This document shows, piece after piece, positions 28,322 to 51,527 of a DNA stretch of 64,000 nt. A program made the translations under genes and the position numbers. The notes beneath the pieces are model-generated. The model made no database searches and was not told where the DNA came from. It was given only the letters and a program-made list of their open reading frames with translations. The number at the start of each line of letters is the position of its first letter. Position 1 is the first letter of the stretch. The stretch is from an uncultured Enterobacteriaceae bacterium (GTDB lineage Bacteria; Pseudomonadota; Gammaproteobacteria; Burkholderiales; SG8-39): positions 8,914-72,913 of the forward strand of contig CAZNVH010000087.1 in the NCBI GenBank assembly GCA_964576525.1, given 5' to 3'.

Positions 28322-28339
28322 CTGGTTATGATATCGGCC

Positions 28340-28490
28340 GCTACCAGGTGTACGGGAAAGAGGTGAAAAGCCTCTACTGCCCCCGCAACGGTAAGCGAGA
28401 AAAGTCGTTCCACGCAGGGCCACTGCGCGAAAGCGCGGGAAGGCGGAACGAGGAAGCTCTCGCGAGTCCGGAGACCGGCCTGGAAGCTTT
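28340..28490 (+). promoter_or_regulatory. Cobalamin (B12) riboswitch in the leader of the TonB-dependent receptor gene
   Basis: P1 arms ccagg (28344-28348) and cctgg (28479-28483). The conserved core is gggaaagaggtgaaaagcc...ctgcccccgcaacggtaagc. A B12-box-like agtccggagaccggcc lies at 28465-28480. SD aggggagg precedes ATG 28536. Confidence 0.8.
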
Positions 28491-28535
28491 CTCAACCATT
28501 TCGCGGCGTCGGGGAAGACGCCAGGGGAGGTTTCT

Positions 28536-36307: not shown

Positions 36308-36317
36308 AATCGCATCC

Positions 36318-37304
36318 ATGCTCCTGGTCACCGGCGGCGCCGGCTTCATCGGCTCCAACTTCGTGCTCTCGACGCTCGCGGCGGGCGGCGAGCCGATCGT
36401 CAACCTCGACAAGCTCACCTACGCTGGCAACCTGCGCAACCTCGACGCCGTGCGCGACGACAAGCGCCACGTGTTCGTGCAGGGCGACATCTGCGACCGC
36501 CACCTCATCAAGGACTTGCTCAGAAAATACCAACCCAGAGCGATCGTTCACTTTGCCGCCGAGAGCCATGTCGATCGCTCGATCGCGGGGCCCGCGGCGT
36601 TCGTGCAGACCAACGTGGTCGGGACGTTCTCGCTGCTCGAGGAAGCCCGGGCGCATTCGAAGGACATCGTCTTCCTGCACGTCTCGACCGACGAGGTCTA
36701 CGGCTCGCTCGGCCCGAAGGACCCCGCCTTCACCGAGGCCACGCCCTACGCGCCGAACAGCCCCTACGCCGCCTCCAAGGCGGCCGCCGACCACCTGGTG
36801 CGCGCCTACCACCACACCTATGGCGTGAAGACGCTCACCACCAACTGCTCCAACAACTTCGGGCCCTACCAGTTCCCGGAGAAGCTGATCCCGCTCGTGA
36901 TCGGCAACGCGCTCGCCGGCAAGCCGCTGCCGGTGTACGGCGACGGAAGCAACGTGCGCGACTGGCTCTACGTGCTCGACCATTGCGACGCGCTGCGCCT
37001 GGTGCTCGAGCGCGGCCGGCCGGGCGAGGCGTACAACATCGGCGGCGGCGGGGAGAGGGCGAACATCGATCTGGTGCGGGAAATCTGCTCATTTCTGGAT
37101 GAATCGAGCCCGCGCAAAGCCGGCAGCTACGCCGAGCTCGTCAGCTTCGTGAAGGACCGCCCCGGCCACGATCGCCGCTACGCCATCGACTCCGCGAAGA
37201 TCGCACGCGAGCTCGGCTGGAAGCCGCGCGAAAGCTTCGCCTCCGGCCTGAAGAAGACCGTGCAGTGGTATGTCGAAAACCGGGCATGGGCGCGGGCCGC
37301 ATGA
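36318..37304 (+). CDS. rfbB: dTDP-glucose 4,6-dehydratase
   Basis: [16 protein letters not shown]...[11 protein letters not shown]...STDEVYG...[13 protein letters not shown]. It heads the rfbBACD gene order. Confidence 0.9.
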
Positions 37305-38179
37305 AAGGCATCGTCCTCGCCGGCGGCTCGGGAACCCGGCTGCACCCGGTGACGCAAGTCGTGTCGAAGCAGTTGCTTCCCGTGTACGACAAGCCGATGG
37401 TGTACTACCCGCTGTCGACGCTGATGCTCGCCGGCATCCGCGACATCCTGCTCATCTCCACGCCGCAGGACACGCCGCGCTTCGAGGCGCTGCTCGGCGA
37501 CGGCAAGCGCTGGGGCATCAGCCTGCGCTACGCCGTGCAGCCGAAGCCCGAAGGCATCGCCCAGGCCTTCCTGGTGGGCCGCGAGTTCATCGGCGGCGAG
37601 CCGGTCGCCCTGGTGCTCGGCGACAACATCTTCCACGGCCATGACCTGACCGAGCTGCTGAAGCGCGCCGCCGCGCGCCGCCGCGGCGCCACGGTGTTCG
37701 CCTACCCGGTCAACGACCCCGGCCGCTACGGCGTGGTCGAGTTCGACGCGAAGGGCAAGGCGGTGAGCATCGAGGAGAAGCCGCGCCAGCCGAAATCGCG
37801 CTACGCGGTGACCGGGTTGTATTTCTACGACGCCGGTGTCGTCGACATCGCCGCGCAGCTCAAGCCGTCGGCGCGCGGCGAGCTGGAGATCACCGATGTG
37901 AACCGCGCCTACCTCGAGCGCGGCGAGCTCGAGGTGATCGCGATGGGCCGCGGCATGGCCTGGCTCGACACCGGAACGCACGAGGCGCTGCTCGAGGCAT
38001 CGCACTTCATCGAAACCATCGAGCGCCGCCAGGGGCTGAAGATCGCCTGCCCGGAGGAAATCGCCTACCGCATGGGGTACATCGACGCCGCCCAGCTCGA
38101 AGCGCTGGCGAAGCCGCTCGAGAAGAGCAGCTACGGCGAGTACCTGAAGCGCGTCGTGACCGACCGCCTGCTGCCGTGA
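37301..38179 (+). CDS. rfbA: Glucose-1-phosphate thymidylyltransferase
   Basis: [39 protein letters not shown]...; ATGA overlap with rfbB. Confidence 0.9.
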
Positions 38180-38721
38180 AGGTAACGCACAGCGAGATTC
38201 CGCAGGTGCTGCTGCTCGAGCCGCGGGTCTTCCAGGACGAAAGGGGCTTCTTCCTGGAAAGCTATAACCGGCGCGCGTTCAACGACGATGTGGGTGTGGA
38301 CGTCGAGTTCGTCCAGGACAACCAGTCGTTCTCGGTGAGGAACGTACTGCGCGGCCTGCACTACCAGATCCGCCAGGCGCAGGGGAAGCTGGTGCAGGTG
38401 CTGGCTGGCGAGATCTTCGATGTCGCGGTCGACCTGCGCCGCAGCTCGCCGGCGTTCGGCAAATGGGCCGGCTTCAACCTTTCCGGCGGCAGCCACCGCA
38501 TGCTGTGGATTCCGCGCGGCTTCGCGCACGGCTACCTGGTGCTGTCGGAGCACGCCATCGTCCTGTACAAGACCACCGACTTCTACGCACCCGAGCACGA
38601 ACGCACCATCCTGTGGAACGACCCGGCGCTCGGCATCAAGTGGCCGCTCGAGGACACGCCGATCGTGAGCGACAAGGACCGGCGCGGCGCGACGTTCGGC
38701 GCCGCCGAACTGTTCGATTGA
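38176..38721 (+). CDS. rfbC: dTDP-4-dehydrorhamnose 3,5-epimerase
   Basis: ...[13 protein letters not shown]...[17 protein letters not shown]...[18 protein letters not shown]...; GTGA overlap with rfbA. Confidence 0.9.
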
Positions 38722-39563
38722 GGATCCTGCTCACCGGCAGCAACGGCCAGGCCGGCTGGGAGCTCGAGCGCGCGCTTCCGGTGCTGGGCGAGGTCGTGGC
38801 CACGGATCGGGCCGGGCTGGATCTGGCCGATGTCCGTGCCATTCGGGAAGTCCTCGAAAAAACAAGGCCGCAAGTCATCGTCAACGCGGCCGCCTACACC
38901 GCGGTCGACAAGGCCGAGTCGGACGCTGATGCGGCGATGCAGGTCAACGGCGTCGCGCCGGGCATCCTCGCCGAGGAGGCGAAACGCCTGGGCGCGCTGC
39001 TGGTCCACTACTCCACCGACTACGTCTTCGACGGCGAAAAGCGTGCGCCTTACCTGGAAGACGATGCGCCGGCGCCAATCAGCGTCTACGGCCGCAGCAA
39101 GCTCGAAGGCGAGCGCCGCATCGCCGCGTCCGGCTGCCGCCACCTGATCCTGCGGGCGAGCTGGGTCTACGCGCCGCGCGGCCGGAATTTCTTCCTGACG
39201 ATCGCGCGCAAGGCGCGGGCCGGCGAGGCGCTGCGCGTGGTCGCCGACCAGCACGGCGTGCCGACCGAGGCGAAGTTCCTCGCCGAGATGACCGTCGCCC
39301 TGCTGCATGGCCACGCGGAAGGCGTGTTCAACGTCGTTCCCGCGGGCGCCACCACGTGGCACGGCTTCGCCTCGGAGATCGCGCAACGCGTCGGCGCAGG
39401 GCAGCCGGTCGCCGCGATCGCGACGGCGGACTACCCGACGCCGGCGCGGCGCCCGCAGTACTCGATCCTCGACTGCGGCAAGCTCGCGGCGCGGCTCGGC
39501 GTGCCGCCGCCGGGCTGGCAATCGCTGCTGGATCGTTGCATGAAAACCTGGATGCAGGCCTAG
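38718..39563 (+). CDS. rfbD: dTDP-4-dehydrorhamnose reductase
   Basis: The TTG start (TTGA overlap with rfbC) gives [16 protein letters not shown]...VNAAAYTAVDKAE...STDYVFDG...YGRSKLEGE. Confidence 0.85.
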   Translation: MRILLTGSNGQAGWELERALPVLGEVVATDRAGLDLADVRAIREVLEKTRPQVIVNAAAYTAVDKAESDADAAMQVNGVAPGILAEEAKRLGALLVHYSTDYVFDGEKRAPYLEDDAPAPISVYGRSKLEGERRIAASGCRHLILRASWVYAPRGRNFFLTIARKARAGEALRVVADQHGVPTEAKFLAEMTVALLHGHAEGVFNVVPAGATTWHGFASEIAQRVGAGQPVAAIATADYPTPARRPQYSILDCGKLAARLGVPPPGWQSLLDRCMKTWMQA

Positions 39564-39578: not shown

Positions 39579-40517
39579 CTAGACATTGCCGTAGCGGGTG
39601 TTGCGGATCATGGTGAAGCCCTTCACCAGCTCCTCGATGCCGGCGTCGAGCGAGAACTTCGGTTTCCAGCCGGTGGCCTCGATCTTGGCGTTGGAGACGA
39701 TGTAGTTGCGCTGGTCCGGGTCCTTGCCGACCGGCGCTTCGAGGAACACGAAGCCCTTCACCCGGTGGGTAATCGCTTCGCACAGCTCGCGCTTCGATAC
39801 GTTCGCGTCGGACAGGCCGACGTTATAGATCTGACCGCGCATCTTTTCGCGGTTGGCGATGGCGTGCATGAAGGCGCCGGCGACGTCGCGCACGTGGATG
39901 TAGTTGCGCTTGAAGCTCGACTCGAACAGCACTACGAAGCGGTCGTGCACCGCGCGGTAGGTGAAGTCGTTCACCAGCAGGTCGATGCGCATGCGCGGCG
40001 ACATGCCGAACACGGTGGCGAGGCGCAGGCTGATGGCGTTGGCGTGGCGCATCAGCTTCTTTTCCACTTCGACCTTTTCGATCGCGTACTGCGAGATCGG
40101 CTTGAGCGGCGACTCCTCGGTGCAGAAATTGTTCTTGTCGCCGCTGCCATAGGCGCTGTTGGTGGTCGGCATCAGCACGTACTGCTCGCGCGCGACGTTC
40201 TTCAGCATCATGGCGATCGCGTCGTGGTTGACGCTGGTCGCGCCGACCGGGTCGCGGTTGCACAGCGGGGCGCCGACGTAGGCGGCGAGCGGGATGACGA
40301 TCTCGGCCTCGCGGATCAGCGGCAGCATCGCCGACTCGATACGGATGTCGCCGCGGATCACGCGGAAATTGCGGTTGGCGCAGACGTGCGCGAGGCTGTT
40401 CTGCGCGTACATGAAGTTGTCTACGACGGTGACGTCGTGCCCGGCGGCGAGCAGCTCGGGGACAAGGATGGAGCCGAGGTAGCCGGCGCCGCCGGTGACG
40501 AGGATGCGGTGACCCAT
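39579..40517 (-). CDS. NAD-dependent epimerase/dehydratase (extended SDR)
   Basis: MGHRILVTGGAGYLGSILVPELL...; catalytic region PISQYAIEKVEVE (YxxxK). It is the last gene of the minus-strand kinase/nucleotidyltransferase module. Confidence 0.75.
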   Translation of the reverse strand: MGHRILVTGGAGYLGSILVPELLAAGHDVTVVDNFMYAQNSLAHVCANRNFRVIRGDIRIESAMLPLIREAEIVIPLAAYVGAPLCNRDPVGATSVNHDAIAMMLKNVAREQYVLMPTTNSAYGSGDKNNFCTEESPLKPISQYAIEKVEVEKKLMRHANAISLRLATVFGMSPRMRIDLLVNDFTYRAVHDRFVVLFESSFKRNYIHVRDVAGAFMHAIANREKMRGQIYNVGLSDANVSKRELCEAITHRVKGFVFLEAPVGKDPDQRNYIVSNAKIEATGWKPKFSLDAGIEELVKGFTMIRNTRYGNV

Positions 40518-40528
40518 GGAATTCCCTC

Positions 40529-41182
40529 TTAGTGTCCGGTGATGATGGTTTCGGCGGCCCGCCAGTCTTCGGGGATGCCGATATCGACGAACGGCGCGTC
40601 GAAGACGCAGCCGTAGATGTCCTTGATCCCCGGCAGCAGATCCTTCTCGAGATTGAACGCCTGCTTCGGCATGTCGGTTCGCTCGAAAAGAAATACGCCG
40701 CCGTTGGCGAGTTCGCCGCCGGCGAGGCTGGTGACGCGGCCGCGCGCGTCGAGCGAGACCCCGGTATAGCGCGGATGGTCCGACCTGAACAACGCCAACG
40801 TCACCTTCGCGCCCTTTTCCCGATGAAAGGCATGAAGCGTCCGCAGGGGTACGGCGAAGTAAGTATCGCCGTTCAGCACGAGGAAGGTCTGCTCCTTCAC
40901 GGAGGCCAGGGCCTGAAGCAGGGCGCCGCCGGTGCCGAGCGGCTTGTCTTCCACCGAGTAGGCGAGCTCGCAACCGCGATACGTCGCGCCGAAATGGGAC
41001 TCGATGAGCTCGTGCTTGTAGCCGATAGCGAGCACCGCGCGGCGCACGCCCTGGGCGATCCAGTAGTCGAGCAGGCGCTCGAGAAACGGGCGCCCGCCGA
41101 CCGGCGCGAGGGGCTTGGGGACATCCGCCACCGCGGCGCGTAGCCGTGTGCCGAGGCCTCCCGCCAGGACGACGGCTTCCAC
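40529..41182 (-). CDS. Sugar-1-phosphate nucleotidyltransferase, HddC-like (D-glycero-alpha-D-manno-heptose-1-P guanylyltransferase type)
   Basis: MEAVVLAGGLGTRLRAAVADVPKPLAPVGGRPFLE is the NTP-transferase G-loop. It is short (217 aa) and paired with a GHMP kinase, as in GDP-heptose pathways. Sugar specificity is inferred only. Confidence 0.65.
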   Translation of the reverse strand: MEAVVLAGGLGTRLRAAVADVPKPLAPVGGRPFLERLLDYWIAQGVRRAVLAIGYKHELIESHFGATYRGCELAYSVEDKPLGTGGALLQALASVKEQTFLVLNGDTYFAVPLRTLHAFHREKGAKVTLALFRSDHPRYTGVSLDARGRVTSLAGGELANGGVFLFERTDMPKQAFNLEKDLLPGIKDIYGCVFDAPFVDIGIPEDWRAAETIITGH

Positions 41183-41185
41183 CGC

Positions 41186-42178
41186 CTACAGACCGGACGG
41201 CTGGTAAAGCACGATGCGGCTGCCGGACATATCGAACTCGAACGGCACGTGCACGAACTTCGCCAGCTGCTCGCGCACCGCCGCCTGGCGCTCGGGCGCG
41301 ACGAACAGCAGCATGAAGCCGCCGCCGCCCGCCCCGAGAAGCTTGCCGCCAATGGCGCCCGCTTCGCGCGCTTGCGCGTAGATGCGGTCGATTTCGTCCG
41401 TCGTCACCATCTCCGAGAGCTTGCGTTTGTGCGTCCAGGCTTCGTGCAGCAGGCCGCCGAAGTCCGCGAGCGGGTGGTTCTTCGCGAGGACCTGCACGCC
41501 TTCGTCGACCATTGCGGTCATGCGGTGGATCTCCTCGGCGCGCTTCGCCAGGTTGCCGATCTTCGACTTGGCCACCTCGGAGGCGATGCGCGCGAATCCG
41601 GTGAACACCAGCATCAGGTTCTTCTGGAACGCGCCGAGGCGCTCGACCGGCAGCACCATCGGCTGCACCTCGATGCTGCCGTCGCGGCGGAAGTCGATGC
41701 GGTTGAAGCCGCCGTACGCCGCCGAGATCTGGTCCTGCGAGCCGACATTTTCCTGGATCACGTCCTGCTCGATGTGGATCGCGAGCGTGCCGAGCTCCTC
41801 CTTGGAGATAAGGCGCCCCTGCATCGCGCGCAGCGCGTTGATCAGGCCGACGGTGAACGCCGAACTCGAGCCCAGGCCGGAGCGCGCCGGCAGGTCGCCG
41901 TCATGGTGGATCTCCACGCCCTGGTCCCAGCGGAAATAGGTGAATACGCCGCGCACCGCGGGGTGCTGGATCTCGGCGATCTCGTTGACCGTTTCCTGCT
42001 TGCGGTAGACGAGGCGATGCTTGTAGTCGAAGAAGGGCGGCAGCCGCCGGCAGCTGATGTAGCAGTACTTGTCGATGGCCGTCGCGAGGACCGCGCCGCC
42101 ATGCTCTCGGTACCACTGCGGGTAATCGCTGCCGCCGCCAAAAAAAGAGACCCGAAAGGGGGTCCGGCTGATGATCAT
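41186..42178 (-). CDS. GHMP-family sugar kinase, HddA-like (heptose-7-P / anomeric sugar kinase type)
   Basis: MIISRTPFRVSFFGGGSDYP...DLPARSGLGSSSAFTVGL (GHMP motif II)...GKLLGAGGGGFMLLF (motif III). Confidence 0.7.
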   Translation of the reverse strand: MIISRTPFRVSFFGGGSDYPQWYREHGGAVLATAIDKYCYISCRRLPPFFDYKHRLVYRKQETVNEIAEIQHPAVRGVFTYFRWDQGVEIHHDGDLPARSGLGSSSAFTVGLINALRAMQGRLISKEELGTLAIHIEQDVIQENVGSQDQISAAYGGFNRIDFRRDGSIEVQPMVLPVERLGAFQKNLMLVFTGFARIASEVAKSKIGNLAKRAEEIHRMTAMVDEGVQVLAKNHPLADFGGLLHEAWTHKRKLSEMVTTDEIDRIYAQAREAGAIGGKLLGAGGGGFMLLFVAPERQAAVREQLAKFVHVPFEFDMSGSRIVLYQPSGL

Positions 42179-42222: not shown

Positions 42223-43206
42223 ATGTTGGCGGGTTTTGTTAAGCAGGGGGACGCCGCCCTCCATACGCGCCTCTACCGTTCGCTGTATCGCATCCGACGC
42301 GCCGAAGAGGAAATCGCTCGCGTCTATCCGACGGACAAGATCAAGAGCCCGGTGCACCTGTCGATCGGCCAGGAGGGCGTGGCCGTCGGCGTGTGCGAAG
42401 CGCTCGAGCCTGACGACGTCGTCTTCGGCTCGTACCGCGGCCACGCGATGTATCTCGCGAAGGGCGGCGAGCTGAAACGCATGATCGCGGAGCTCTACGG
42501 CAAGATCGACGGCTGCGCGCGCGGCAAGGGCGGCTCGATGCACCTCGTCGACGTCGCGCGTGGCGTGATGGGGACTTCCGCGGTCGTCGCCACGACGATT
42601 CCGAACGCGGTCGGCTACGCGTACGCGCTCAGGCTGCGCAAGGAGCGCCGCGCCGTGGTTTCCTTCTTCGGCGACGGTGCAACGGAAGAAGGCGTGTTCA
42701 CCGAGTCGCTCAATTTCGCGGCGCTGAAGAAGCTGCCGATCCTCTTCGTCTGCGAGAACAACCGCTACGCCATCCATACCCACCAGCACCGGCGGCAGGC
42801 GAACGACGACATCTGCGGCCGCGTGCGCAGCCACGGCATCGCCGCGCATCGCATCGAGGAAAACGATGTGCTGGCGCTCCATGCGCTGACCAGAAAGCTG
42901 ATTCAAGAAGTTCGTGGCGGGAGCGGTCCGGCGTTCGTCGAGTGCATGACCTACCGCTGGCTCGAGCACGTCGGCCCCGGCGAGGACTTCGCCCTGGGTT
43001 TTCGCGAGCGCGCGGAAGCCGAGACCTGGAAGGAGGGCGATCCGGTGAAGAAAGTCGGCGACACGCTCGAGGCCGCGGCGCGCGAGCAGATCGAGAAGGA
43101 AGTCGAGGCCGAAATCGCCGCCGCATTCGATTTCGCCGAGTCGAGCGCCTTCCCCGGCGAAGCCGAGCTGCATCGCCACGTCTACCGGGACCGCGCCGAT
43201 GGATAG
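42223..43206 (+). CDS. Thiamine-diphosphate-dependent 2-oxoacid dehydrogenase E1 alpha-like subunit
   Basis: Canonical ThDP motif GDGATEEGVFTESLNFAALKKLPILFVCENN (GDG-x26-NN), plus ...SPVHLSIGQEGVAVG...YRGHA. Confidence 0.8.
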   Translation: MLAGFVKQGDAALHTRLYRSLYRIRRAEEEIARVYPTDKIKSPVHLSIGQEGVAVGVCEALEPDDVVFGSYRGHAMYLAKGGELKRMIAELYGKIDGCARGKGGSMHLVDVARGVMGTSAVVATTIPNAVGYAYALRLRKERRAVVSFFGDGATEEGVFTESLNFAALKKLPILFVCENNRYAIHTHQHRRQANDDICGRVRSHGIAAHRIEENDVLALHALTRKLIQEVRGGSGPAFVECMTYRWLEHVGPGEDFALGFRERAEAETWKEGDPVKKVGDTLEAAAREQIEKEVEAEIAAAFDFAESSAFPGEAELHRHVYRDRADG

Positions 43207-44245
43207 GGCAAGCTCGTTCGTCGACGCCATCCGCGAGGCAACCGACCAGGAGATGGCGCGCGACCCGCGCGTCGTGCTCTTCGGTCTCGACGTCGACGAC
43301 CCGAAGGCGATCCTCGGCACGACCAAGGGGCTGGCCGAGCGCTACGGGCCCGAGCGCGTGTTCGGAACACCGCTCTCCGAGGATGCGATGACCGGCGCTG
43401 CAGTCGGCATGGCGCTCGCCGGCCTGCGGCCGATCCACGTCCATATCCGCATGGACTTCGTGATGCTCGCCATGAACCAGCTCATCAACATGGCGGCGAA
43501 GACGCACTACATGTTCGGCGGCCAGGAGAGTTGCCCGCTGGTCGTGCGCTCGATCATCGGCAAGAGCTGGGGGCAGGGCGCGCAGCACTCGCAGGGCCTT
43601 TACGCCTTTTTCATGCACGTGCCCGGGCTGAAGGTCGTCGCGCCCTCCACGCCGTACGATGCCAAGGGCTGCCTCGCCGCGGCGGTGCGTGACGAGAATC
43701 CGGTGATGTTTGTCGAGCACCGCATTCTGTACTACCAGAAGGGGCCGGTGCCGGAGGAGAGTTATGAAGTCCTACCCGGCAAGGCGCGCGTCGCCGTCCC
43801 GGGCAAGGACGTGACCATCGTCGGCATCTCCTACATGCAGGTCGAGGCGCTGCGCGCGCAGCGCTACCTGCAGGAAGTCGGCGTGTCTGCCGAGATCATC
43901 GACCCGATCTGGCTCTCGCCGCTCGATGTCGACACCATCGCCGCTTCGGCGGCCCGCACCGGGCGGCTGCTGGTGGTCGACAACGGCTGGAGCACCTGCG
44001 GCGCGAGCGCCGAGATCCTCAGCGCCGTCTACGAGAAGCTGCAGGACGGCCGCCTGCCGCGCGCACGGCGCATGGCGTTCGCGCCGACGCCCTGCCCGAC
44101 GACGCCGAGCCTGGAGAAGCTCTTCTATCCCAACGCCCGCACCATCGCCGCCGCCGCGTACGACCTGGTCAAAGGCTCGCCGCAGGGCTGGCTGCCGCAC
44201 GAGCGTCCCGACCTCAACGACATCGAGTTCAAGGGGCCGTTCTGA
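43199..44245 (+). CDS. 2-oxoacid dehydrogenase E1 beta-like (transketolase pyrimidine-binding/C-terminal) subunit
   Basis: ...RVFGTPLSEDAMTGAAVGMALAGLRPI...QHSQGLYAFFMHVPGLKVVAPSTPYDAKG...; 8-nt overlap with the alpha subunit gene. Confidence 0.8.
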   Translation: MDRASSFVDAIREATDQEMARDPRVVLFGLDVDDPKAILGTTKGLAERYGPERVFGTPLSEDAMTGAAVGMALAGLRPIHVHIRMDFVMLAMNQLINMAAKTHYMFGGQESCPLVVRSIIGKSWGQGAQHSQGLYAFFMHVPGLKVVAPSTPYDAKGCLAAAVRDENPVMFVEHRILYYQKGPVPEESYEVLPGKARVAVPGKDVTIVGISYMQVEALRAQRYLQEVGVSAEIIDPIWLSPLDVDTIAASAARTGRLLVVDNGWSTCGASAEILSAVYEKLQDGRLPRARRMAFAPTPCPTTPSLEKLFYPNARTIAAAAYDLVKGSPQGWLPHERPDLNDIEFKGPF

Positions 44246-45417
44246 TGCAGTGGCCGCTGATGCGCAACAACATCGTGCGCGAGGACCTCGATTCGTTGAT
44301 CGAGCTGCTGCGCGGCGACGATCCGATGCTGACGCAGTCGGGCAACGTGCGCGCCTTCGAGCGCGAGTGGTCCGAGTGGCTCGGCGTCAGGCACAGCGTG
44401 TTCGTCAACTCCGGCTCGTCGGCGAACCTGATCACCATGGCGGCGCTGCGCGAGCTGCGCGGCAGCGGCGAAGTGATCGTGCCGACGCTCACCTGGGTCT
44501 CCGACATCGCCTCGGTCCTGCAATGCGGCTTCGATCCGGTGTTCGTCGACATCGACGAGCGCACTTTCGGCATGGACGTGGACGAGGTGCTGAAGAAGAT
44601 CACCAAGCGCACGCGCGCCGTTTTCCTCACGCATATCCTCGGCTACAACGCGCTCGACGACCGGCTGCTCGAGGGCCTCAGCAAGCGCGGCGTGCCTCTC
44701 GTCGAGGACGTGTGCGAGTCGCACGGCGCCACCTTCAGGGGCAGGAAGCTCGGCGCGTTCGGCCTGGTGTCGAACTTCTCCTTCTACTATGCCCACCACA
44801 TGAGCACGGTCGAAGGCGGCATGGTCTGCACCGACAACGCCGAGTTCTACGAGACGCTGCGCATGCTGCGCTCGCACGGTATGGTGCGCGAGATGCAATC
44901 GCCGGAGCTGAAGAGTAAGTACCAGAGCCGCTATCCGGACCTCAACCCCGACTTCATCTTCGCTTTCCCGGCCTACAACGTGCGCAGCACCGAGCTGAAC
45001 GCGGTCATCGGCCGCACGCAGCTCAAGCGGCTGGATGCCAATAACGAGCGACGCACCGAGAACCTGAAGCTGTTCCTGAAGAACCTCGATCCGAAGCTCT
45101 ACCGGACGGATTTTGCTGTCGAAGGCAGCTGCAACTACGCCTTTACTCTGGTGCTCAAGAAAGCCGACGATAAGCTGATGGCCGCCGTATCGAAAATCTT
45201 GCGGGAAGCGGGTGTTGAATTTCGCCGCGGCACTTCCGGCGGAGGCAATCAGCTCCGCCAACCCTACTTGCGCAAGCTCCTCGGCGATGACGCCTGGAAG
45301 TCCTACCCCAAGGTCGACCACGTGCACTTCTACGGCATGTACATCGGCAACTATCCGGATCTCGAGCACGATCGGATCCACGAGCTGTGCAAGCTGCTGA
45401 ACGGAGTGCGCGCTTGA
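44245..45417 (+). CDS. DegT/DnrJ/EryC1 fold enzyme of the PMP-dependent sugar 3-dehydratase type (ColD/E1-like)
   Basis: SGSSANL..., ...EDVCESHGA..., and NFSFYYAHHMSTVEGG. In that last motif, the position of the Schiff-base Lys in the aminotransferase motif SFHxxKxxxxxEGG is occupied by His. Confidence 0.7.
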   Translation: MQWPLMRNNIVREDLDSLIELLRGDDPMLTQSGNVRAFEREWSEWLGVRHSVFVNSGSSANLITMAALRELRGSGEVIVPTLTWVSDIASVLQCGFDPVFVDIDERTFGMDVDEVLKKITKRTRAVFLTHILGYNALDDRLLEGLSKRGVPLVEDVCESHGATFRGRKLGAFGLVSNFSFYYAHHMSTVEGGMVCTDNAEFYETLRMLRSHGMVREMQSPELKSKYQSRYPDLNPDFIFAFPAYNVRSTELNAVIGRTQLKRLDANNERRTENLKLFLKNLDPKLYRTDFAVEGSCNYAFTLVLKKADDKLMAAVSKILREAGVEFRRGTSGGGNQLRQPYLRKLLGDDAWKSYPKVDHVHFYGMYIGNYPDLEHDRIHELCKLLNGVRA

Positions 45418-46403
45418 GCGAGATCAGGAGCGCGCTCATCACCGGCATCGGCGGCTCGGGCGGCAGCTACCTCGCCGAGTACATCGCCGAGCACCATCCG
45501 CAGGTGAAGCTGCACGGCTTCGCGCGCTGGCACAGCACCACGCAGGAGAATCTGGCCAATCTCAAGGGCAAGGTGGCGGTGCATGAGGTGGATCTCAACG
45601 ACTTCGGCTCGGTGATCGAGGCGCTGCAGGCGGTGCGCCCGGACGCGATCTTCCACCTCGCCGCGCATGCCAACGTGCGCGCGTCGTTCATCACGCCGCA
45701 GGCGGTACTCTCGAACAACATTCTTGGCACCGGCAATCTCTTCGAGGCGGTGCGCATCGCCAAGCTCGATCCGCTGATCCAGCTCTGCAGCACTTCGGAG
45801 GTTTACGGCCAGGTCGATCCGAAGGACGTGCCGATCCGCGAGGAGGCGCCGCTGCGCCCGGCGAGCCCGTACGCAGTGTCGAAGGTGGCGCAGGATCTCC
45901 TCGGCTACACCTATTTCGTCGCCTACAAGATGCGCATCATCCGTACGCGCATGTTTGCTTACTTGAACCCGCGCCGGATCGATCTCTTCGCCACTTCATT
46001 TGCTCGCCAGGTCGCGCGCATCGAGGTCGGGCTGCAGCAGGAGCTTGCGCATGGCAATCTCGAATCCGTGCGCACCATCGTCGATGTGCGCGACGCCATG
46101 CGCGCCTACTGGGAGGCTTTGCTGCACTGCAAGGCGGGCGAGGTCTATAATATCGGCGGTACTGCGACGATGAGCGTCGGGGAAGTGCTCAAGAGGCTGA
46201 TCGCATTGGCGAAAAAACCCATCCCGACCCGCCTCGATCCAGCCCTGCTGCGCCCCGCCGACGTCACCCTACAGATTCCAAATGTCGAGCGATTCATCGC
46301 CGCGACCGGCTGGAAGCCGGAATATTCGTTCGACGAGAGCCTCGCGCACCTGCTTGAATACTGGCGCCGCCGCGCGGCTCAGGAGATAGCAACGACACGA
46401 TGA
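45414..46403 (+). CDS. GDP-mannose 4,6-dehydratase / Rmd-family extended SDR
   Basis: The TTG start (TTGA overlap) gives ALITGIGGSGGSYLAEYI...CSTSEVYG...ASPYAVSKVAQD, which is Gmd-like in its Rossmann motif and S/T-Y-K triad. Confidence 0.7.
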   Translation: MSEIRSALITGIGGSGGSYLAEYIAEHHPQVKLHGFARWHSTTQENLANLKGKVAVHEVDLNDFGSVIEALQAVRPDAIFHLAAHANVRASFITPQAVLSNNILGTGNLFEAVRIAKLDPLIQLCSTSEVYGQVDPKDVPIREEAPLRPASPYAVSKVAQDLLGYTYFVAYKMRIIRTRMFAYLNPRRIDLFATSFARQVARIEVGLQQELAHGNLESVRTIVDVRDAMRAYWEALLHCKAGEVYNIGGTATMSVGEVLKRLIALAKKPIPTRLDPALLRPADVTLQIPNVERFIAATGWKPEYSFDESLAHLLEYWRRRAAQEIATTR

Positions 46404-48466
46404 GCAATCTGCAGAACATCCGTATCGCCACTCGGGAAAATAATGCCCAGGTGACGCGCGCGGTCACGCTGCAGCCGGCGGCCGACAATAAGACGCCGCT
46501 GCGCGTCGGCCTGGTGCAGATCAACAACAGCTTCTCCGGCCAGAACTACATGCCGTATTCGGCGGGCCTGTTGCAGGCCTACGCCATGAAGAACGCGCGC
46601 CATCCGAAGCGCTATGACTTCCAGCTGCCGATCTACTCGCGCATCCCGGTGGCGAAGGCCGTCGAGCAGCTCAAGGACGCCGACGTCATCGGCTTCAGCG
46701 CCTACGTCTGGAACATCCGCATCTCGCTCGAGATCGCGCGCCGCCTGAAGGCGCTCAAGCCGGAGATGCTGATCGTCTTCGGCGGGCCGCAGGTGCCCGA
46801 CCGCTCGGAGGCGTTCCTGCGCGAGCACCGCTTCATCGACTTCGCGGTGCACGGCGAGGGCGAGGCGGTATTCCTGTCGATCCTCGAGAACTTTCCGTCG
46901 CGCACCTTCGAGCAGGTGCCTTCGATCAGCTTCGTGCGCGCCGACGGCAGCTTCCAGCTCAACCCGCGCGCCGAGCGCCTGCACGACATCTCGGTCATCC
47001 CGTCGCCCTACCTCTCGGGCATGTTCGACTCGCTGATGGCGGCGAACCCGCAGGAGAAGTGGCTGATCCTGTGGGAGACGAACCGCGGCTGCCCCTTCAA
47101 GTGCACCTTCTGCGACTGGGGTTCGGCGATCGCCGCCAAGGTCAGCCAGTTCGATCTCGAGCGGCTGCTGCGCGAAGTGGACTGGTTCGCCGGCAACAAG
47201 ATCGAGTTCATCTTCTGCTGCGACGCCAACTACGGCATGCTGAAGCGCGATTACGCCATCACCAAGTACGTCGCCGAGACCAAGCAGCGCCTGGGCTTTC
47301 CGCGGGCGCTGTCGGTGCAGAACACCAAGAATGGCACCGAGCGCGCCTACAAGGTGCAGAAGCTCCTCTCCGACGCCGGCCTCAACAAGGGCGTCGCCAT
47401 CGCGCTGCAATCGGTCGACGAGCACACGCTGGAGGCGATCAAGCGAGAGAACATCTCCACCGAGTCCTTCCAGGAGCTGCAGCGGCGCTTCACCCGCGAC
47501 CGGGTCGAGACCTACTCCGACCTGATCCTCGGGCTGCCGGGCGAGACCTACGACTCGTTCGCCGACGGCGTCGGCAGCGTCATCGACAACGGCCAGCACA
47601 ACCGCATCCAGTTCAACAACCTGTCGATCCTGCCGAACGCCGAGATGGGCGATCCCGCCTATCAGAAGAAATACGGCATGGTCACGGTGGAGACCAAGAT
47701 CGTCAACATCCACGGCTCGCTCAAGGAGACCGCGGAAGAAGAGATCTTCGAGGTGCAGGACTTGGTCGTCGCCACGGCATCGATGCCGCACGCGGCGTGG
47801 GTGCGCACGCGCGCCTTCTGCTGGATGACGGCGCTGCTGCACTTCGACAAGGTGATGCAGATTCCGCTGGTGCTGGTGCGCAACCTGTGCGACATCGGCT
47901 ACCGCGACATCGTCGAGGCTTTCCTCGGCGAGCGCGCCGACCGCTACCCGGTGATCGCCGACATCAAGCGCTTCTTCGTCGACAAGGCGCGCGACATCCA
48001 GGGCGGCGGCGCGGAGTACTGCCACTCGGACGAGTGGCTCGACATCTTCTGGCCGGCCGACGAGTACGTGCTGATCAAGCTGTGCGTCGAGGGCAAGCTC
48101 GACCGTTTCTACGCCGAGGCCGAGAGCCTGCTCGCCGAGCTGACCGAGGCGAGATCGGCGGCGCTGCCGCGCGAGCTCCTGCACGAGGCGGTGCGCCTCA
48201 ACCGCCAGTTGATCAAGCTGCCGTTCCAGCGCGACGACATCGAGGTCGAGACCTCGCACAACATCTGGGATTACTACCGCGCCGTGCTGGTGGGCGACCG
48301 CGTGCCGCTCGAGGACCGTGCCTGCATCAACCGCATCCGCCGAAGCCAGGCCGTCTACGAAACCTGGACCGACTGGTACCGCGAGGTGATCTGGTACGGC
48401 AACAAGAAGGGCGCCTACCTCTACGGAAACGACGCCGCCGAGCGGGAACTCGCCGGCCACTACTAG
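46400..48466 (+). CDS. Cobalamin-binding (class B) radical SAM enzyme, 688 aa
   Basis: N-terminal B12-binding-like Rossmann region ...VIGFSAYVWNIRISLEIARRLKALKPEMLIVFGGPQV.... Radical SAM cluster motif NRGCPFKCTFCDWG (CxxxCxxC). Long C-terminal extension of about 250 aa. ATGA overlap with the upstream gene. Confidence 0.8.
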   Translation: MSNLQNIRIATRENNAQVTRAVTLQPAADNKTPLRVGLVQINNSFSGQNYMPYSAGLLQAYAMKNARHPKRYDFQLPIYSRIPVAKAVEQLKDADVIGFSAYVWNIRISLEIARRLKALKPEMLIVFGGPQVPDRSEAFLREHRFIDFAVHGEGEAVFLSILENFPSRTFEQVPSISFVRADGSFQLNPRAERLHDISVIPSPYLSGMFDSLMAANPQEKWLILWETNRGCPFKCTFCDWGSAIAAKVSQFDLERLLREVDWFAGNKIEFIFCCDANYGMLKRDYAITKYVAETKQRLGFPRALSVQNTKNGTERAYKVQKLLSDAGLNKGVAIALQSVDEHTLEAIKRENISTESFQELQRRFTRDRVETYSDLILGLPGETYDSFADGVGSVIDNGQHNRIQFNNLSILPNAEMGDPAYQKKYGMVTVETKIVNIHGSLKETAEEEIFEVQDLVVATASMPHAAWVRTRAFCWMTALLHFDKVMQIPLVLVRNLCDIGYRDIVEAFLGERADRYPVIADIKRFFVDKARDIQGGGAEYCHSDEWLDIFWPADEYVLIKLCVEGKLDRFYAEAESLLAELTEARSAALPRELLHEAVRLNRQLIKLPFQRDDIEVETSHNIWDYYRAVLVGDRVPLEDRACINRIRRSQAVYETWTDWYREVIWYGNKKGAYLYGNDAAERELAGHY

Positions 48467-49426
48467 GTGCGTTACCGGAAACTGGGCCGCTCCGGCCTCT
48501 CGGTGTCCGAGGTCGGCTTCGGCGCCTGGGGCATCGGCGGCAACAAGGACGGCGCGGTCGCCTACGGGCCGACCGACGAGGCGCAGTCGCTCGACGCGCT
48601 CGCCGCGGCGCGCGACGCCGGCATCAACTTCTTCGACACCGCGGATCTCTACGGCTTCGGCGAGAGCGAGCGCCTCATCGGCAGGGCCTTTTCCGGCTGC
48701 CGCGACCAGGTGGTCATCGCCAGCAAGGTCGGTATGCTGGATGCGACGGGCAAGCAGGATTTCGAGCCCGCGCGCATCGAGAAGGCGCTCGACGCCAGCT
48801 TGGCGCGGCTTCGGACCGACTATGTGGATCTCTATCAACTCCATAGCCCGTCGCTCGAGGTCCTCGAAAGCAAGCCTGCGGTCCTCCGGACGCTGGACAG
48901 GCTGCGGGAGAGAGGGAAGATTCGCTGCGTCGGCATCTCGCTGCGCGGCCCGGAGGAGGGCGCAAGAGCGCTCGCGCTCTATCCGTTCGCCGCGGTACAG
49001 GTGAACTTCAACCTGCTCGACCAGCGCCTGCTCGACCTCGGCCTCGCCGAGCTCTGCGCCGAGCGCGGCGCCGGCATCATCGCTCGCACGCCGCTTTGCT
49101 TCGGCTTCCTCACCACGAAATACTCGGCTGACGAAAAGTTCGATGCGTCGGACCATCGCAGCCGCTGGAATCCGGAGCAACGCCGCGTCTGGGCATCGGC
49201 GTATGACCTGTTCGAGAAATACAGCAAGAAGCCGGAGACGGCGGCGCAATTTGCCATCCGCTTCTGTCTCTCATTCGAAGCAGTGTCGTCCGTGATTCCC
49301 GGCATGCTCACCCGCGAGCACGTCGCGGAGAACAGCGTCGCCGGCGGTACGCCGATGCTCGGCGCGCCGGAGACGAGCCGCATCCGCGACATCTACAAAT
49401 CGAACCGCTTTTTTGTCGGACGCTGA
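48467..49426 (+). CDS. Aldo/keto reductase
   Basis: The GTG lies immediately after the upstream TAG. YRKLGRSGLSVSEVGFGAWGIGG...FFDTADLYG.GESE...DLYQLHSP shows the AKR signatures. Confidence 0.85.
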   Translation: MRYRKLGRSGLSVSEVGFGAWGIGGNKDGAVAYGPTDEAQSLDALAAARDAGINFFDTADLYGFGESERLIGRAFSGCRDQVVIASKVGMLDATGKQDFEPARIEKALDASLARLRTDYVDLYQLHSPSLEVLESKPAVLRTLDRLRERGKIRCVGISLRGPEEGARALALYPFAAVQVNFNLLDQRLLDLGLAELCAERGAGIIARTPLCFGFLTTKYSADEKFDASDHRSRWNPEQRRVWASAYDLFEKYSKKPETAAQFAIRFCLSFEAVSSVIPGMLTREHVAENSVAGGTPMLGAPETSRIRDIYKSNRFFVGR

Positions 49427-49427
49427 C

Positions 49428-50384
49428 ATGCTGTTCAAGGACAAGCGCATCCTCGTCGCCGGTGCCACCGGGCTGATCGGCAGCCACCTGCTGGCGCGCC
49501 TGCTCGCCGAGGGCGCGCGGGTGCGGGCCACGCACTGGAAGCGCGACCTGCCCATCCAGCATGCGTCGCTCGAGTCGATGCGCGTCGATCTGACGCAGGG
49601 CGACGACTGCCGCAAGGCAGTGCGCGACATGGAGTGGGTGTTCCTTTGCGCCGCCAGTACCTCCGGCGCGCATACCATCGCCTCGACGCCGATGGTGCAC
49701 GTGACGCCGAACGTGCTCATCAACTCGCAGATGCTGGAGGCGGCCTACGAATCGGGCGTGGCCAAGTTCATGTGGCTCTCCAGCACGGTCGCCTACCCGC
49801 CGAGCGACAAGCCGATGCGCGAGGAGCAGATGTTCGAGGGCGAGCCGTTCGAAAAGTACTATTTCGCCGGCTGGACCAAGCGCTTCACCGAGATCCTGTG
49901 CCGCATGTACGGCGAGAAGCTGGCGCGGCGCATGACCACCATCGTGCTGCGGCCGACCAACGTCTACGGGCCGAACGACGACTTCGAGTTCGCCACCTCC
50001 CACGTCATCCCGGCGCTGATCCGCAAGATCGTCGAGCGCTGGGACCCGATCGAGGTGTGGGGCGACGGCAGCGAGGTGCGCGACGCGATCTACGTCGACG
50101 ACATGGTCGAGGCGATGGTGCTCGCCGCGCAGCGGCTGCAGAGCTACGACGCGGTGAACGTGGGCCTCGGGCGTGGCTACAGCGTGAATGAGATCCTGAA
50201 GATGCTGCTCGAGCTCGACAGTTACGAGAATGCACGCATCGTCTACGATCGGTCGAAACCGACCATGATCCCCATCCGCCTGATCGACACCGCCAAGGCC
50301 GAACGCGTGCTCGGCTTCAAGGCCAAGGTCGACCTGCGGGAGGGGCTGCGCCGCACACTCGATTGGTATCGGAAGCAGCGATGA
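49428..50384 (+). CDS. NAD(P)-dependent epimerase/reductase, GDP-L-fucose synthase / ColC-like SDR
   Basis: MLFKDKRILVAGATGLIGSHL...WLSSTVAYP...YYFAGWTKRF...VLRPTNVYGPND. The start was chosen at ATG 49428, 1 nt after the AKR stop. TTG 49413 is an alternative. Confidence 0.7.
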   Translation: MLFKDKRILVAGATGLIGSHLLARLLAEGARVRATHWKRDLPIQHASLESMRVDLTQGDDCRKAVRDMEWVFLCAASTSGAHTIASTPMVHVTPNVLINSQMLEAAYESGVAKFMWLSSTVAYPPSDKPMREEQMFEGEPFEKYYFAGWTKRFTEILCRMYGEKLARRMTTIVLRPTNVYGPNDDFEFATSHVIPALIRKIVERWDPIEVWGDGSEVRDAIYVDDMVEAMVLAAQRLQSYDAVNVGLGRGYSVNEILKMLLELDSYENARIVYDRSKPTMIPIRLIDTAKAERVLGFKAKVDLREGLRRTLDWYRKQR

Positions 50385-50917
50385 TCAAGCCCTGGAAAGT
50401 GCTGAAGCGCAGGCCCGTGTACCGCGCCGATCCCTGGCTCGCGGTCGAGCGTCAGGAGGTGGAACTGCCCGACGGCCGCGTCGTCGCCGACTACCACCGC
50501 ATTACGCTGCCCGACTGCGCCGGCGTGGTGGTGCAACGCGAGGATGGTCGCTTCCTCGTCGCGCGCCAGTACCGCCATGGACTCGGCCGCGTCAGCCTGA
50601 CCCTGCCCGGTGGCAGCCTGAACCCGGGGGAATCGCCGCTTGCAGGCGCCAAGCGGGAGCTGCGCGAAGAGACCGGCTATGAGGCGCCGTCCTGGAAGCC
50701 GCTTGGCAGCTTCGTCATGAACGCGAACTACGGCTGCGGCACGATGCATTTCTTCCTCGCCTCGGGAGCGCAGCCGGCGATGGCGGCGAACAACGACGAT
50801 CTCGAAGAGAGCGAGCTGGTATTTCTCACCCGGGACGAATTGCGCGCTGCGATCGGCAGCGGCGAGGTCGCGGCGCTGGCGGCGGTCGCCGCAATCCTGC
50901 TCGCTCTCAGCCCATGA
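50381..50917 (+). CDS. Nudix hydrolase (nucleotide-sugar hydrolase type, Gmm/WcaH-like position)
   Basis: Complete Nudix box GGSLNPGESPLAGAKRELREETGY. ATGA overlap with the upstream SDR gene. Confidence 0.8.
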   Translation: MIKPWKVLKRRPVYRADPWLAVERQEVELPDGRVVADYHRITLPDCAGVVVQREDGRFLVARQYRHGLGRVSLTLPGGSLNPGESPLAGAKRELREETGYEAPSWKPLGSFVMNANYGCGTMHFFLASGAQPAMAANNDDLEESELVFLTRDELRAAIGSGEVAALAAVAAILLALSP

Positions 50918-51527
50918 AGCCGACGAGCATGTAGCGCGGCTCGCGCGCGAATGGCGCGACCGGCGTGACGAGGTGCGGCGGTCGCGTCTTGCCGTGATTG
51001 AGAACGACTAGCTGGTTGAACTTCGGCAACGCCGGCGTCATTACCTCATCCTCGACTGTCATGAGGATGCCGCCCCAGTCCCACTTCCAGTTCTTGCTCA
51101 GGTAGTAGATGAAGCCCACCGGACCCGCGTAGTCGTCGATGTGGACACGGAACTGGTCGCCCTCTGTCATCTTGTAGGCGCGCAAGTCCACCTTGTCGGA
51201 CTTGTTGCCCGAAAGATCCTCGAGCATCGGCCGAATGTGATTGGCGTAGATGCCAGTGATCGCCGGATTGCTTTCCAGCCAGCGCGACCGCCAGAAGCTC
51301 GCTATGTAGACCTCGCCGGGCTCGGGCAGGAAAGGCGAGTTGGTGCGAAACACGTGCTCGTAGTGATGCTTGCGTTCCTGGCGGATGTGGTCGTATTCGG
51401 CGGTCTGGTAGAGAGCGCGCGCGCTTTCAGCGACGCTGGCCGGCAGGGCCTCCTCGATGATCACCGTGCCCTGCTGTTGGAACTGCCGGCGGCGCGCGTC
51501 ACCCCGGATCGGCATCGGTTCGGACAT
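50907..51527 (-). CDS. 2-oxoglutarate/Fe(II)-dependent oxygenase-like protein
   Basis: ...DQFRVHIDDYAG (HxD)...WKWDWGGIL...NQLVVLNHGKTRPPHLVTPV is consistent with a 2OG-Fe(II) jelly-roll. The start at ATG 51527 gives MSEPMPIRG. Confidence 0.55.
   Translation of the reverse strand: MSEPMPIRGDARRRQFQQQGTVIIEEALPASVAESARALYQTAEYDHIRQERKHHYEHVFRTNSPFLPEPGEVYIASFWRSRWLESNPAITGIYANHIRPMLEDLSGNKSDKVDLRAYKMTEGDQFRVHIDDYAGPVGFIYYLSKNWKWDWGGILMTVEDEVMTPALPKFNQLVVLNHGKTRPPHLVTPVAPFAREPRYMLVGFMG

Follow-up and report, generated by a model that had tools for sequence, protein, structure and literature searches.

The DNA considered here, referred to as the window, is a stretch of 64,000 nucleotides from an uncultured Enterobacteriaceae bacterium (assembly GCA_964576525.1, contig CAZNVH010000087.1, positions 8,914 to 72,913 of the forward strand; GTDB lineage SG8-39 of the Burkholderiales). 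On its plus strand, between a gene for a short-chain dehydrogenase/reductase (SDR) that resembles sugar 4,6-dehydratases and a gene for an aldo-keto reductase (AKR), lies the gene of a 688-residue radical S-adenosylmethionine (SAM) enzyme, hereafter the rSAM protein. The genes around it resemble those for tailoring guanosine diphosphate (GDP)-linked sugars, and a preliminary description had taken the enzyme for a class B radical SAM methylase embedded in a sugar operon. The gene and its parts, with domain limits transferred from CysS, are as follows.

46400 to 48466, plus strand: gene of the TokK-like cobalamin-dependent radical SAM enzyme P0001, 688 aa, stop codon included (open reading frame (ORF) and translation, Pfam, fold)
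46499 to 47044, plus strand: predicted cobalamin-binding Rossmann domain, about aa 34-215 (Pfam PF02310, TokK and CysS alignments)
47045 to 47839, plus strand: predicted Radical SAM core, about aa 216-480 (Pfam PF04055, invariant columns)
47090 to 47113, plus strand: [4Fe-4S] motif CPFKCTFC, C231-x3-C235-x2-C238 (sequence)
47840 to 48463, plus strand: predicted third domain of the TokK/CysS type, about aa 481-688 (Foldseek, invariant columns)

The gene is real and conserved. Its frame has no internal stop, and a GGAGA lies 15-19 nt 5' of the start codon. The ATG at 46400 shares the sequence ATGA with the TGA of the upstream SDR gene, and the AKR gene begins with its GTG at 48467, immediately after the TAG at 48464-48466, so the translational coupling on both sides noted in the preliminary description holds. 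The same is true of the B12-binding-like domain, the CPFKCTFC motif and the long C-terminal part. When the hidden Markov model classification suggested there is run, PF02310 (B12-binding) matches aa 84-159 with 47.9 bits (cut-off 32.1) and PF04055 (Radical_SAM) matches aa 227-388 with 45.7 bits (cut-off 29.5). In an alignment of 28 diverse homologs, from which all statements on invariance are taken here, C231, C235 and C238 are all invariant. The DxHxxG His ligand is absent from the cobalamin domain, in agreement with the base-off, His-off binding of TokK. The architecture is thus that of a class B (cobalamin-dependent) enzyme, for which cobalamin binding and SAM cleavage are predicted. The first 33 residues (46400-46498) are matched only in betaproteobacterial relatives and a minority of others; elsewhere the match begins at about aa 19-36.

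Among solved structures, the best relative of the rSAM protein is TokK (E=7e-103, 348 bits, aa 49-506), and the next is CysS (E=2e-59, 205 bits). A profile of the 28 homologs scores TokK at 420 bits and CysS at 264 bits. TokK and ThnK (PDB 7KDX, 7KDY) are sequential methylases of carbapenem C6, and CysS (PDB 9N1B-D) extends an O-methyl group of cystobactamid iteratively. A 681-aa ThnK-like ORF on plasmid pSCAT of Streptantibioticus cattleyicolor, which from its place and length we infer to be ThnK, is 38% identical over 483 aa (BLASTP, aa 45-514). In sequence, the alignments to TokK end near TokK residue 480, so that TokK N515 and Y652 lie beyond them, and the last ~175 aa of the rSAM protein (beyond aa 514) have no BLASTP similarity to the ThnK-like ORF. 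The likeness in fold is full-length. An AlphaFold2 model built from the 28-sequence alignment, with a predicted local distance difference test (pLDDT) score of 78 and a predicted template modelling (pTM) score of 0.81, superposes on TokK with a template modelling (TM) score of 0.78 over 680 columns of the 688 aa and on CysS with 0.71 (Foldseek); OxsB and TsrM match the model with a TM score of only 0.45. Low confidence in the model is found in the cluster loop 227-248 and in residues 662-680 (the latter with pLDDT <50), as well as in aa 1-33.

The preliminary description had set apart a C-terminal domain of about 250 aa as one it did not recognise. The long C-terminal part is there, but the notion of an unknown fold is not borne out. 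Since the superposition on TokK and CysS covers the full length, this part is, according to the model, a third domain of their type, and it is only in the last ~175 aa that the sequence is unique. The domain is conserved within the family to the final residues: W665-YGNKKGAYLYG-676 and G686-H687 are invariant, and the C-terminal loop WYGNKKGAYLYG belongs to the rSAM protein. In TokK and CysS the third domain is used for substrate binding, and the substrates bear a pantetheine handle, as the published work on these enzymes describes.

The residues around the cofactors also place the rSAM protein with TokK and CysS. The TokK paper describes two Trp residues, Trp76 under the cobalt and Trp215 in the active site, as common to TokK, ThnK and CysS and not found in GenK, Fom3, PhpK and TsrM. 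In HMMER alignments both have invariant counterparts here, W104 (TokK W76, CysS W75) and W240 (TokK W215, CysS W206). CysS W188 aligns with the invariant W221, and TokK L383 corresponds to the conserved L408. The substrate anchor on strand beta-3 is not kept. In TokK this anchor is Arg280, which binds the carbapenam carboxylate and whose R280Q variant is nearly inactive; in CysS it is Trp271, a gate as well as a substrate-binding residue. The rSAM protein has an invariant S305 at this position, within the core strand P301-RALSVQNTKN, of which the polar run S305-V-Q307-N308-T309-K310-N311 is invariant. A polar strand (S305, Q307, N308, T309) at the site of TokK R280 would suit another kind of substrate, one with many hydroxyls. 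S305 at the anchor position would thus speak for a different substrate and is no argument against a shared chemistry.

Comparison with curated family models also points to methylases. The best NCBIfam model is that of the KedN5 family (NF033712) of methylcobalamin-dependent radical SAM C-methyltransferases, which matches aa 48-433 with 288 bits over model positions 13-402 of 624, leaving the C-terminal third of the model unmatched. The models of HpnJ, HpnR, BchE and PhpK give 37-75 bits, far below their cut-offs of 480-650 (HpnJ 75.1 vs 577.6, HpnR 37.1 vs 650, BchE 40.5 vs 481). None of the GenK, GenD1, Fms7, MoeK5 and Fom3 family models comes near the top of the NCBIfam ranking. The preliminary description had named GenK and Fom3 as comparators; its assignment to the class B methylases agrees with the likeness to TokK and CysS, but by their sequences TokK, ThnK and CysS are closer and are the apt comparators. 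A 2026 review lists GenK, GenD1, Fom3 and MoeK5 as Csp3-methyltransferases. GenK, GenD1, Fms7 and MoeK5 are class B radical SAM C-methylases that act on aminoglycoside and moenomycin sugars, and thus provide a functional precedent although they are not close in sequence; their substrates, like that of Fom3, are antibiotic scaffolds and not precursors of surface polysaccharides. Cobalamin-dependent radical SAM enzymes are known to methylate sp3 carbons of sugars, and Fom3 takes a nucleotide-linked (CMP-linked) substrate.

TokK and ThnK share a three-domain build with the rSAM protein, as does the more distant CysS, but their settings differ. TokK and ThnK belong to beta-lactam clusters and act on a pantetheinylated substrate, and the substrate of CysS is an aromatic compound bound to pantetheine or a carrier. 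The gene of the rSAM protein belongs to a GDP-sugar/glycan operon, in Gram-negative bacteria and in other phyla, and no pantetheinylated substrate is in view. The neighbours are those listed in the preliminary description, preceded by a divergent group of genes.

39579 to 42178, minus strand: divergent activation module (NCBIfam), made up of the next three genes
39579 to 40532, minus strand: SDR
40529 to 41182, minus strand: HddC-like GDP-sugar nucleotidyltransferase (NCBIfam HddC 166 bits, cut-off 300)
41186 to 42178, minus strand: HddA-like GHMP kinase (NCBIfam HddA 136 bits, cut-off 600)
42223 to 44245, plus strand: thiamine diphosphate (ThDP)-dependent E1 alpha (42223-43206) and E1 beta (43199-44245) (Pfam E1_dh, Transket_pyr, Transketolase_C)
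44245 to 45417, plus strand: ColD-type, pyridoxamine phosphate-dependent sugar 3-dehydratase of the DegT family (translation, NCBIfam RfbH-like)
45387 to 46403, plus strand: GDP-sugar 4,6-dehydratase-like SDR (Pfam GDP_Man_Dehyd 2e-64)
48467 to 49426, plus strand: AKR with a GTG start (Pfam Aldo_ket_red 4e-58)
49413 to 50384, plus strand: GDP-L-fucose-synthase-like (Fcl-like) SDR of the epimerase/reductase type (NCBIfam GDPFucSynFcl 172.6 bits, cut-off 500)
50363 to 50917, plus strand: NUDIX hydrolase, the last plus-strand gene of the operon (Pfam NUDIX 7e-18)

The best solved relatives of these neighbours are GDP-sugar enzymes, and the nucleotide handle of the pathway is therefore very probably GDP, in line with the GDP-sugar glycan setting of the preliminary description. 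The ColD-like enzyme is closest to ColD/WbdK (2gms, E=7e-51) and has a His at the position of the Schiff-base Lys (SFYYAHHMSTVEGG). The Fcl-like SDR is closest to GDP-L-fucose synthase (E=1.5e-36). The SDR upstream of the rSAM gene has as solved relatives the GDP-6-deoxy-4-hexulose reductase Rmd (2pk3, 198 bits), the GDP-heptose 4,6-dehydratase of C. jejuni (7us5, 189 bits) and Gmd (118 bits). The AKR has only generic solved relatives. HddA and HddC are the best matches of the kinase and nucleotidyltransferase, though below threshold, and none of the neighbours reaches the curated NCBIfam threshold for Gmd, Fcl, HddA or HddC.

The E1 alpha/beta pair is without an E2 or E3 and is presumed to be an enzyme that adds a two-carbon branch to the sugar. 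Precedents for such a pair together with an AKR are found in the acetyl-branched sugars of avilamycin (AviB1/AviB2) and paulomycin (Pau11/Pau12 and Pau7). In paulomycin biosynthesis, the E1 alpha/beta-like Pau11/Pau12 add an acetyl branch at C-4, which the AKR Pau7 reduces to hydroxyethyl. The two clusters are from actinomycetes and make antibiotics; a TokK-like radical SAM enzyme is recorded in neither, and the substrate of Pau7 is the completed glycoside.

Relatives of the rSAM protein are numerous. A word-indexed search returned 4125, the best 120 of which are 61-95% identical and 620-693 aa long. In an exhaustive search of representatives of clusters at 50% identity, 1876 clusters were found at E<1e-30. 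Some 150 of these reach at least the score of TokK, and in most the alignment extends through the C-terminal domain. When one genome per species was scanned, 570 stretches with relatives emerged. The best 80 of the 570 (56-91% identity) come from Beta- and Alphaproteobacteria, Planctomycetota, Omnitrophota, Nitrospirota, Elusimicrobiota, Verrucomicrobiota, Acidobacteriota, Cyanobacteriota, Spirochaetota and Poribacteria, and include a single cultured strain, Enhydrobacter aerosaccus ATCC 27094. For the study of gene neighbourhoods, 86 loci with orthologs of 56-95% identity from at least 10 phyla were counted, some of them annotated by our own ORF calls and Pfam.

The neighbourhood is widely shared. 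The proteins of the window's neighbours were compared by tblastn with all loci, and in the 47 loci flanked by 6 kb or more on each side, the most frequent neighbour is the Fcl-like SDR (42/47), followed by E1 alpha (36/47). E1 beta, the 4,6-dehydratase-like SDR and the AKR are each present in 35 of the 47, the GHMP kinase and the nucleotidyltransferase each in 33, the ColD-like enzyme in 18 and the NUDIX hydrolase in 6. Of the 76 loci with enough sequence, 62 have a reductase gene immediately downstream of the rSAM gene and on its strand (AKR in 51, Fcl-like SDR in 11). Among the 45 well-flanked loci that remain once duplicate contigs are removed, 36 have a ThDP enzyme (E1 alpha/beta or a split transketolase) no more than 10 kb away, in 34 cases the E1 pair. 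The preliminary description had linked the enzyme to a ThDP-installed side chain; the association is frequent, but it is not obligatory, since the other nine loci have no ThDP enzyme within that distance. Nearly all of the loci belong to nucleotide-sugar or glycan gene groups. A hopanoid or bacteriochlorophyll context, which would have spoken against a glycan function, was not seen in any of the 86 loci, and the scores of the HpnJ, HpnR and BchE models are low.

The composition of individual loci varies. In locus L087, from plasmid p2 of the cultured Azospirillum sp. TSA2s (NZ_CP039644.1, 280153-310168; a mobilizable plasmid of 352 kb), the ortholog is 52% identical (gene E6C67_RS04265) and the order is Gmd, SDR, split transketolase, methyltransferase, GT61, SDR, NUDIX, rSAM, AKR. 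A gene annotated as canonical Gmd takes the place of the 4,6-dehydratase-like SDR there, with no kinase/transferase pair, and the split transketolase suggests that the type of ThDP enzyme is interchangeable with E1 alpha/beta. Loci that lack a ThDP enzyme within 10 kb and keep the rSAM gene and the reductase include L074, in which the order SDR-rSAM-AKR-MBOAT is accompanied by deacetylase, sulfotransferase and HisF/HisH-like genes, and L072, with the order rSAM-SDR-GT1. L045 and L025, described below, are also among the nine. In a maximum-likelihood tree of 82 orthologs, E1-associated loci are on all major branches. The E1-less loci form no clade of their own in this tree, save for a long branch of Tagaea and Azospirillum and a group of second copies from Reyranella. 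Reyranella genomes seem to hold a second ortholog (L045:7185-13078, from a metagenome-assembled genome of Reyranella sp., with its sisters L055, L062 and L085), which adjoins a gene for a second, 527-aa B12-radical SAM protein, an FkbM-type methyltransferase gene and LPG_synthase_TM, and is without E1, AKR and dehydratase genes.

Some relatives are unusual in other ways. A planctomycete-like metagenome contig (L001; 1099-3755, 12948-16367) carries, besides the ortholog, a second B12-radical SAM enzyme, a PhyH oxygenase, a Rieske protein, a DJ-1/PfpI protein and two separate E1 alpha/beta pairs, and seems to represent an expanded form of the pathway. Its second B12-radical SAM gene was set aside as an informative relative, as it is of a different family (19% identity). 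Long relatives had been considered as fusions with pathway partners ("Rosetta stone" proteins) and proved to be of two other kinds. P0124, P0125, P0128, P0131 and P0157 (42-53% identical, ~1000-1090 aa) are interrupted by an intein (Intein_splicing with LAGLIDADG_3, Hom_end or DUF559), inserted at or inside CxxxCxxC as judged by alignment breakpoints, which corresponds to aa ~229-237 of the rSAM protein (window nt ~47084-47110). P0137 (1283 aa) and P0141 (1271 aa) are tandem fusions with two complete B12-binding plus Radical_SAM modules.

The above results make it likely that the rSAM protein C-methylates a nucleotide-sugar intermediate. All its closest characterised relatives are methylases, which favours methyl transfer as the reaction. 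The reductase directly downstream suggests a keto substrate, and as the first methylation by TokK takes place next to a carbonyl, the carbon next to the branch carbonyl is the favoured site. The role that we favour, tentatively at this level of detail, is therefore that of a C-methyltransferase in the tailoring of a GDP-sugar for a surface glycan, with this carbon as the site. The substrate would be a GDP-linked 4-keto-6-deoxy or 3,6-dideoxy intermediate, built by the HddA/HddC-like, 4,6-dehydratase-like and ColD-like enzymes, to which the E1 pair would already have added a two-carbon acyl branch. A first SAM would methylate cob(I)alamin, held base-off and His-off over Trp104, and the [4Fe-4S] cluster at C231/C235/C238 would cleave a second SAM, generating a 5'-deoxyadenosyl radical. 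An sp3 carbon in the sugar intermediate would lose a hydrogen to this radical, and the resulting substrate radical would receive the methyl from methylcobalamin. One or several methyls may be added, turning the acetyl into a propionyl or isobutyryl group, and the translationally coupled AKR would then reduce the ketone.

Several observations weigh against this assignment of substrate and site. The reaction of the clade is drawn wholly by analogy, and the handle in the known TokK and CysS substrates is pantetheine, not a nucleotide. The score of the rSAM protein in the KedN5 model is below the curated cut-off of 700 bits, so that by the NCBI rule it is not a member of that family. The HddA/HddC-like and 4,6-dehydratase-like calls are likewise below curated thresholds, and the top relative of the latter is the reductase Rmd. 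The 9 of 45 loci without a nearby ThDP enzyme imply that the branch is no obligatory feature of the substrate, unless the genes lie elsewhere. The 11 loci in which an Fcl-type SDR, of a class that reduces a ring 4-keto group, takes the place of the AKR fit a ring-proximal site as well.

A fuller version of the favoured role, in which a GDP-linked, ThDP-branched and probably heptose-derived keto-sugar is methylated iteratively to give ethyl- or isopropyl-type side chains and then undergoes ketoreduction, is doubtful. It would make the substrate the first nucleotide-sugar of a TokK-type enzyme, and the products an undescribed class of C-alkylated surface sugars in more than 10 phyla. Identification of the product with erwiniose was also considered, by way of GDP-heptose 4,6-dehydration, 3-deoxygenation, C4 branching and then C7 methylation to a 3,6,8-trideoxy-4-C-(1-hydroxyethyl)-octose. 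It was dropped, as the known route has no radical SAM step: erwiniose, caryophyllose and gastriose derive from CDP-3,6-dideoxy-4-keto-glucose and long 2-keto acids via YerE-type enzymes and aldolases. An erwiniose-type chemical logic for an undescribed sugar is possible.

The location of the methyl group could differ within the same enzyme class and pathway. The methyl might be placed on the sugar backbone, at C3 or C5 beside the 4-keto group or at C6 or C7, with the ThDP-made branch uninvolved and the downstream reductase acting on the ring 4-keto group. We consider this the main alternative to the favoured site, possible though on the whole rather unlikely. The rSAM gene and its downstream reductase make up the most conserved unit of the neighbourhood, and the pair is retained where no ThDP enzyme is present within 10 kb. 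The Fcl-type SDRs that stand in for the AKR belong to the class that reduces GDP-4-keto-6-deoxy sugars at the 4-keto group. It is also known that carbinol carbons, in sugars or in compounds resembling them, are methylated by GenK, GenD1, Fom3 and MoeK5. However, a ThDP enzyme is present in 80% of well-flanked loci, and the window encodes an AKR as well as an Fcl-like SDR, which suggests that two carbonyls need reduction. Moreover, C3 or C5 methylation of 4-keto sugars normally goes via an enolate and is carried out by ordinary SAM enzymes, so that no radical chemistry would be required for it.

The enzyme might also act later than the favoured C-methylation of the GDP-sugar, on a sugar that has been passed to a polyprenyl-phosphate carrier or joined to the nascent glycan, or on a non-sugar substituent of the glycan. 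Transferases or membrane proteins, and not nucleotide-sugar enzymes, adjoin the gene in several loci (glycosyltransferase family 2, GT2, in L001, L003 and L005; MBOAT and LPG_synthase_TM in L074 and L045), and the channel formed by the cobalamin and C-terminal domains that holds a long handle in TokK and CysS could fit a lipid-phosphate equally. In the window and in most loci, however, the gene is placed among those of soluble nucleotide-sugar enzymes, with which it is translationally coupled, and neither a transmembrane segment nor a fusion to a transferase is seen in the rSAM protein. Late action is accordingly improbable.

Methyl transfer itself might be replaced by another radical reaction, such as a C-C cyclisation or rearrangement to a caryose-like carbocycle. 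Class B enzymes that do not methylate exist (BchE, OxsB, HpnJ and ThnL), and the cassette provides a keto branch that could close onto the sugar chain. The nearest characterised enzymes are nevertheless methylases, with a clear lead in score (TokK, CysS and the KedN5 model at 348, 205 and 288 bits vs HpnJ and BchE at 75 and 40), and the Trp pair specific to TokK, ThnK and CysS is invariant. In addition, caryose keeps its C6 hydroxyl, while the cassette has a 4,6-dehydratase-type enzyme. A non-methylating reaction is thus quite improbable. That the gene has no link to a glycan, or is an inactive remnant whose place in the operon is coincidental, is suggested by one ortholog that sits alone among unrelated housekeeping genes (L025; PEPCK, NadA, OmpA) and is highly improbable in view of the identity kept across phyla, the invariance of all cofactor residues, the glycan context of nearly all other loci and the coupling of the gene on both sides.

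The wider window bears on the supply of cobalamin and on the glycan. The B12 riboswitch that the preliminary description had placed about 18 kb away is present at 28329-28497 on the plus strand (104 bits), 17.9 kb upstream of the rSAM gene. It precedes a TonB-dependent receptor gene (28536-30599), after which come genes for lipopolysaccharide-core glycosyltransferases and msbA. The riboswitch and the receptor show that the organism imports corrinoids; nothing ties the riboswitch specifically to the GDP-sugar operon. Directly upstream of the cassette is a complete rmlB-rmlA-rmlC-rmlD set for dTDP-L-rhamnose (36216-39563, plus strand, above curated cut-offs), from which the glycan probably contains rhamnose too. 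On the other side, a 2-oxoglutarate-Fe(II) oxygenase-like gene (206 aa; 50907-51527, minus strand; Pfam 2OG-FeII_Oxy_3) converges on the NUDIX gene, the 3' ends overlapping by 11 nt, and behind it on the minus strand are genes for a family 4 glycosyltransferase (GT4), an AsnB-type amidotransferase, a Trm112-fused methyltransferase and a fused ATP-binding cassette (ABC) exporter.

The sequence of the window is complete in two DNA sequencing runs from freshwater sediment and partial in two runs from the same habitat labelled METAGENOMIC RNA-Seq, the run type being the tool's guess. Both of the RNA-Seq-labelled runs contain mismatch-free contigs across 46165-46701 (dehydratase/rSAM) and 48296-48635 (rSAM/AKR). 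If the libraries are truly RNA, the rSAM gene may be transcribed in situ, and co-transcribed with its neighbours; carry-over of DNA is possible.

Pathways to antibiotics, cofactors and lipids are known to employ cobalamin-dependent radical SAM methylases. In the literature, we found no characterised member of the TokK-like enzyme type from a glycan or nucleotide-sugar pathway, and no report of a cobalamin-dependent radical SAM methylase that acts on the nucleotide-sugar precursor of a surface polysaccharide. The interpretation of the rSAM protein as a GDP-sugar methylase is supported by the relatives of the enzyme and by its neighbourhood, from which we infer its function. If it is true, the rSAM protein would be a TokK-type enzyme with a new class of substrate, and with a substrate-binding strand and a C-terminal subdomain of its own. 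The question is testable, as two cultured strains, Azospirillum sp. TSA2s and Enhydrobacter aerosaccus ATCC 27094, are carriers. The general picture would be that many environmental bacteria carry surface sugars with an extra carbon that is installed by radical chemistry, made in dependence on vitamin B12 and absent from standard reports on glycans.

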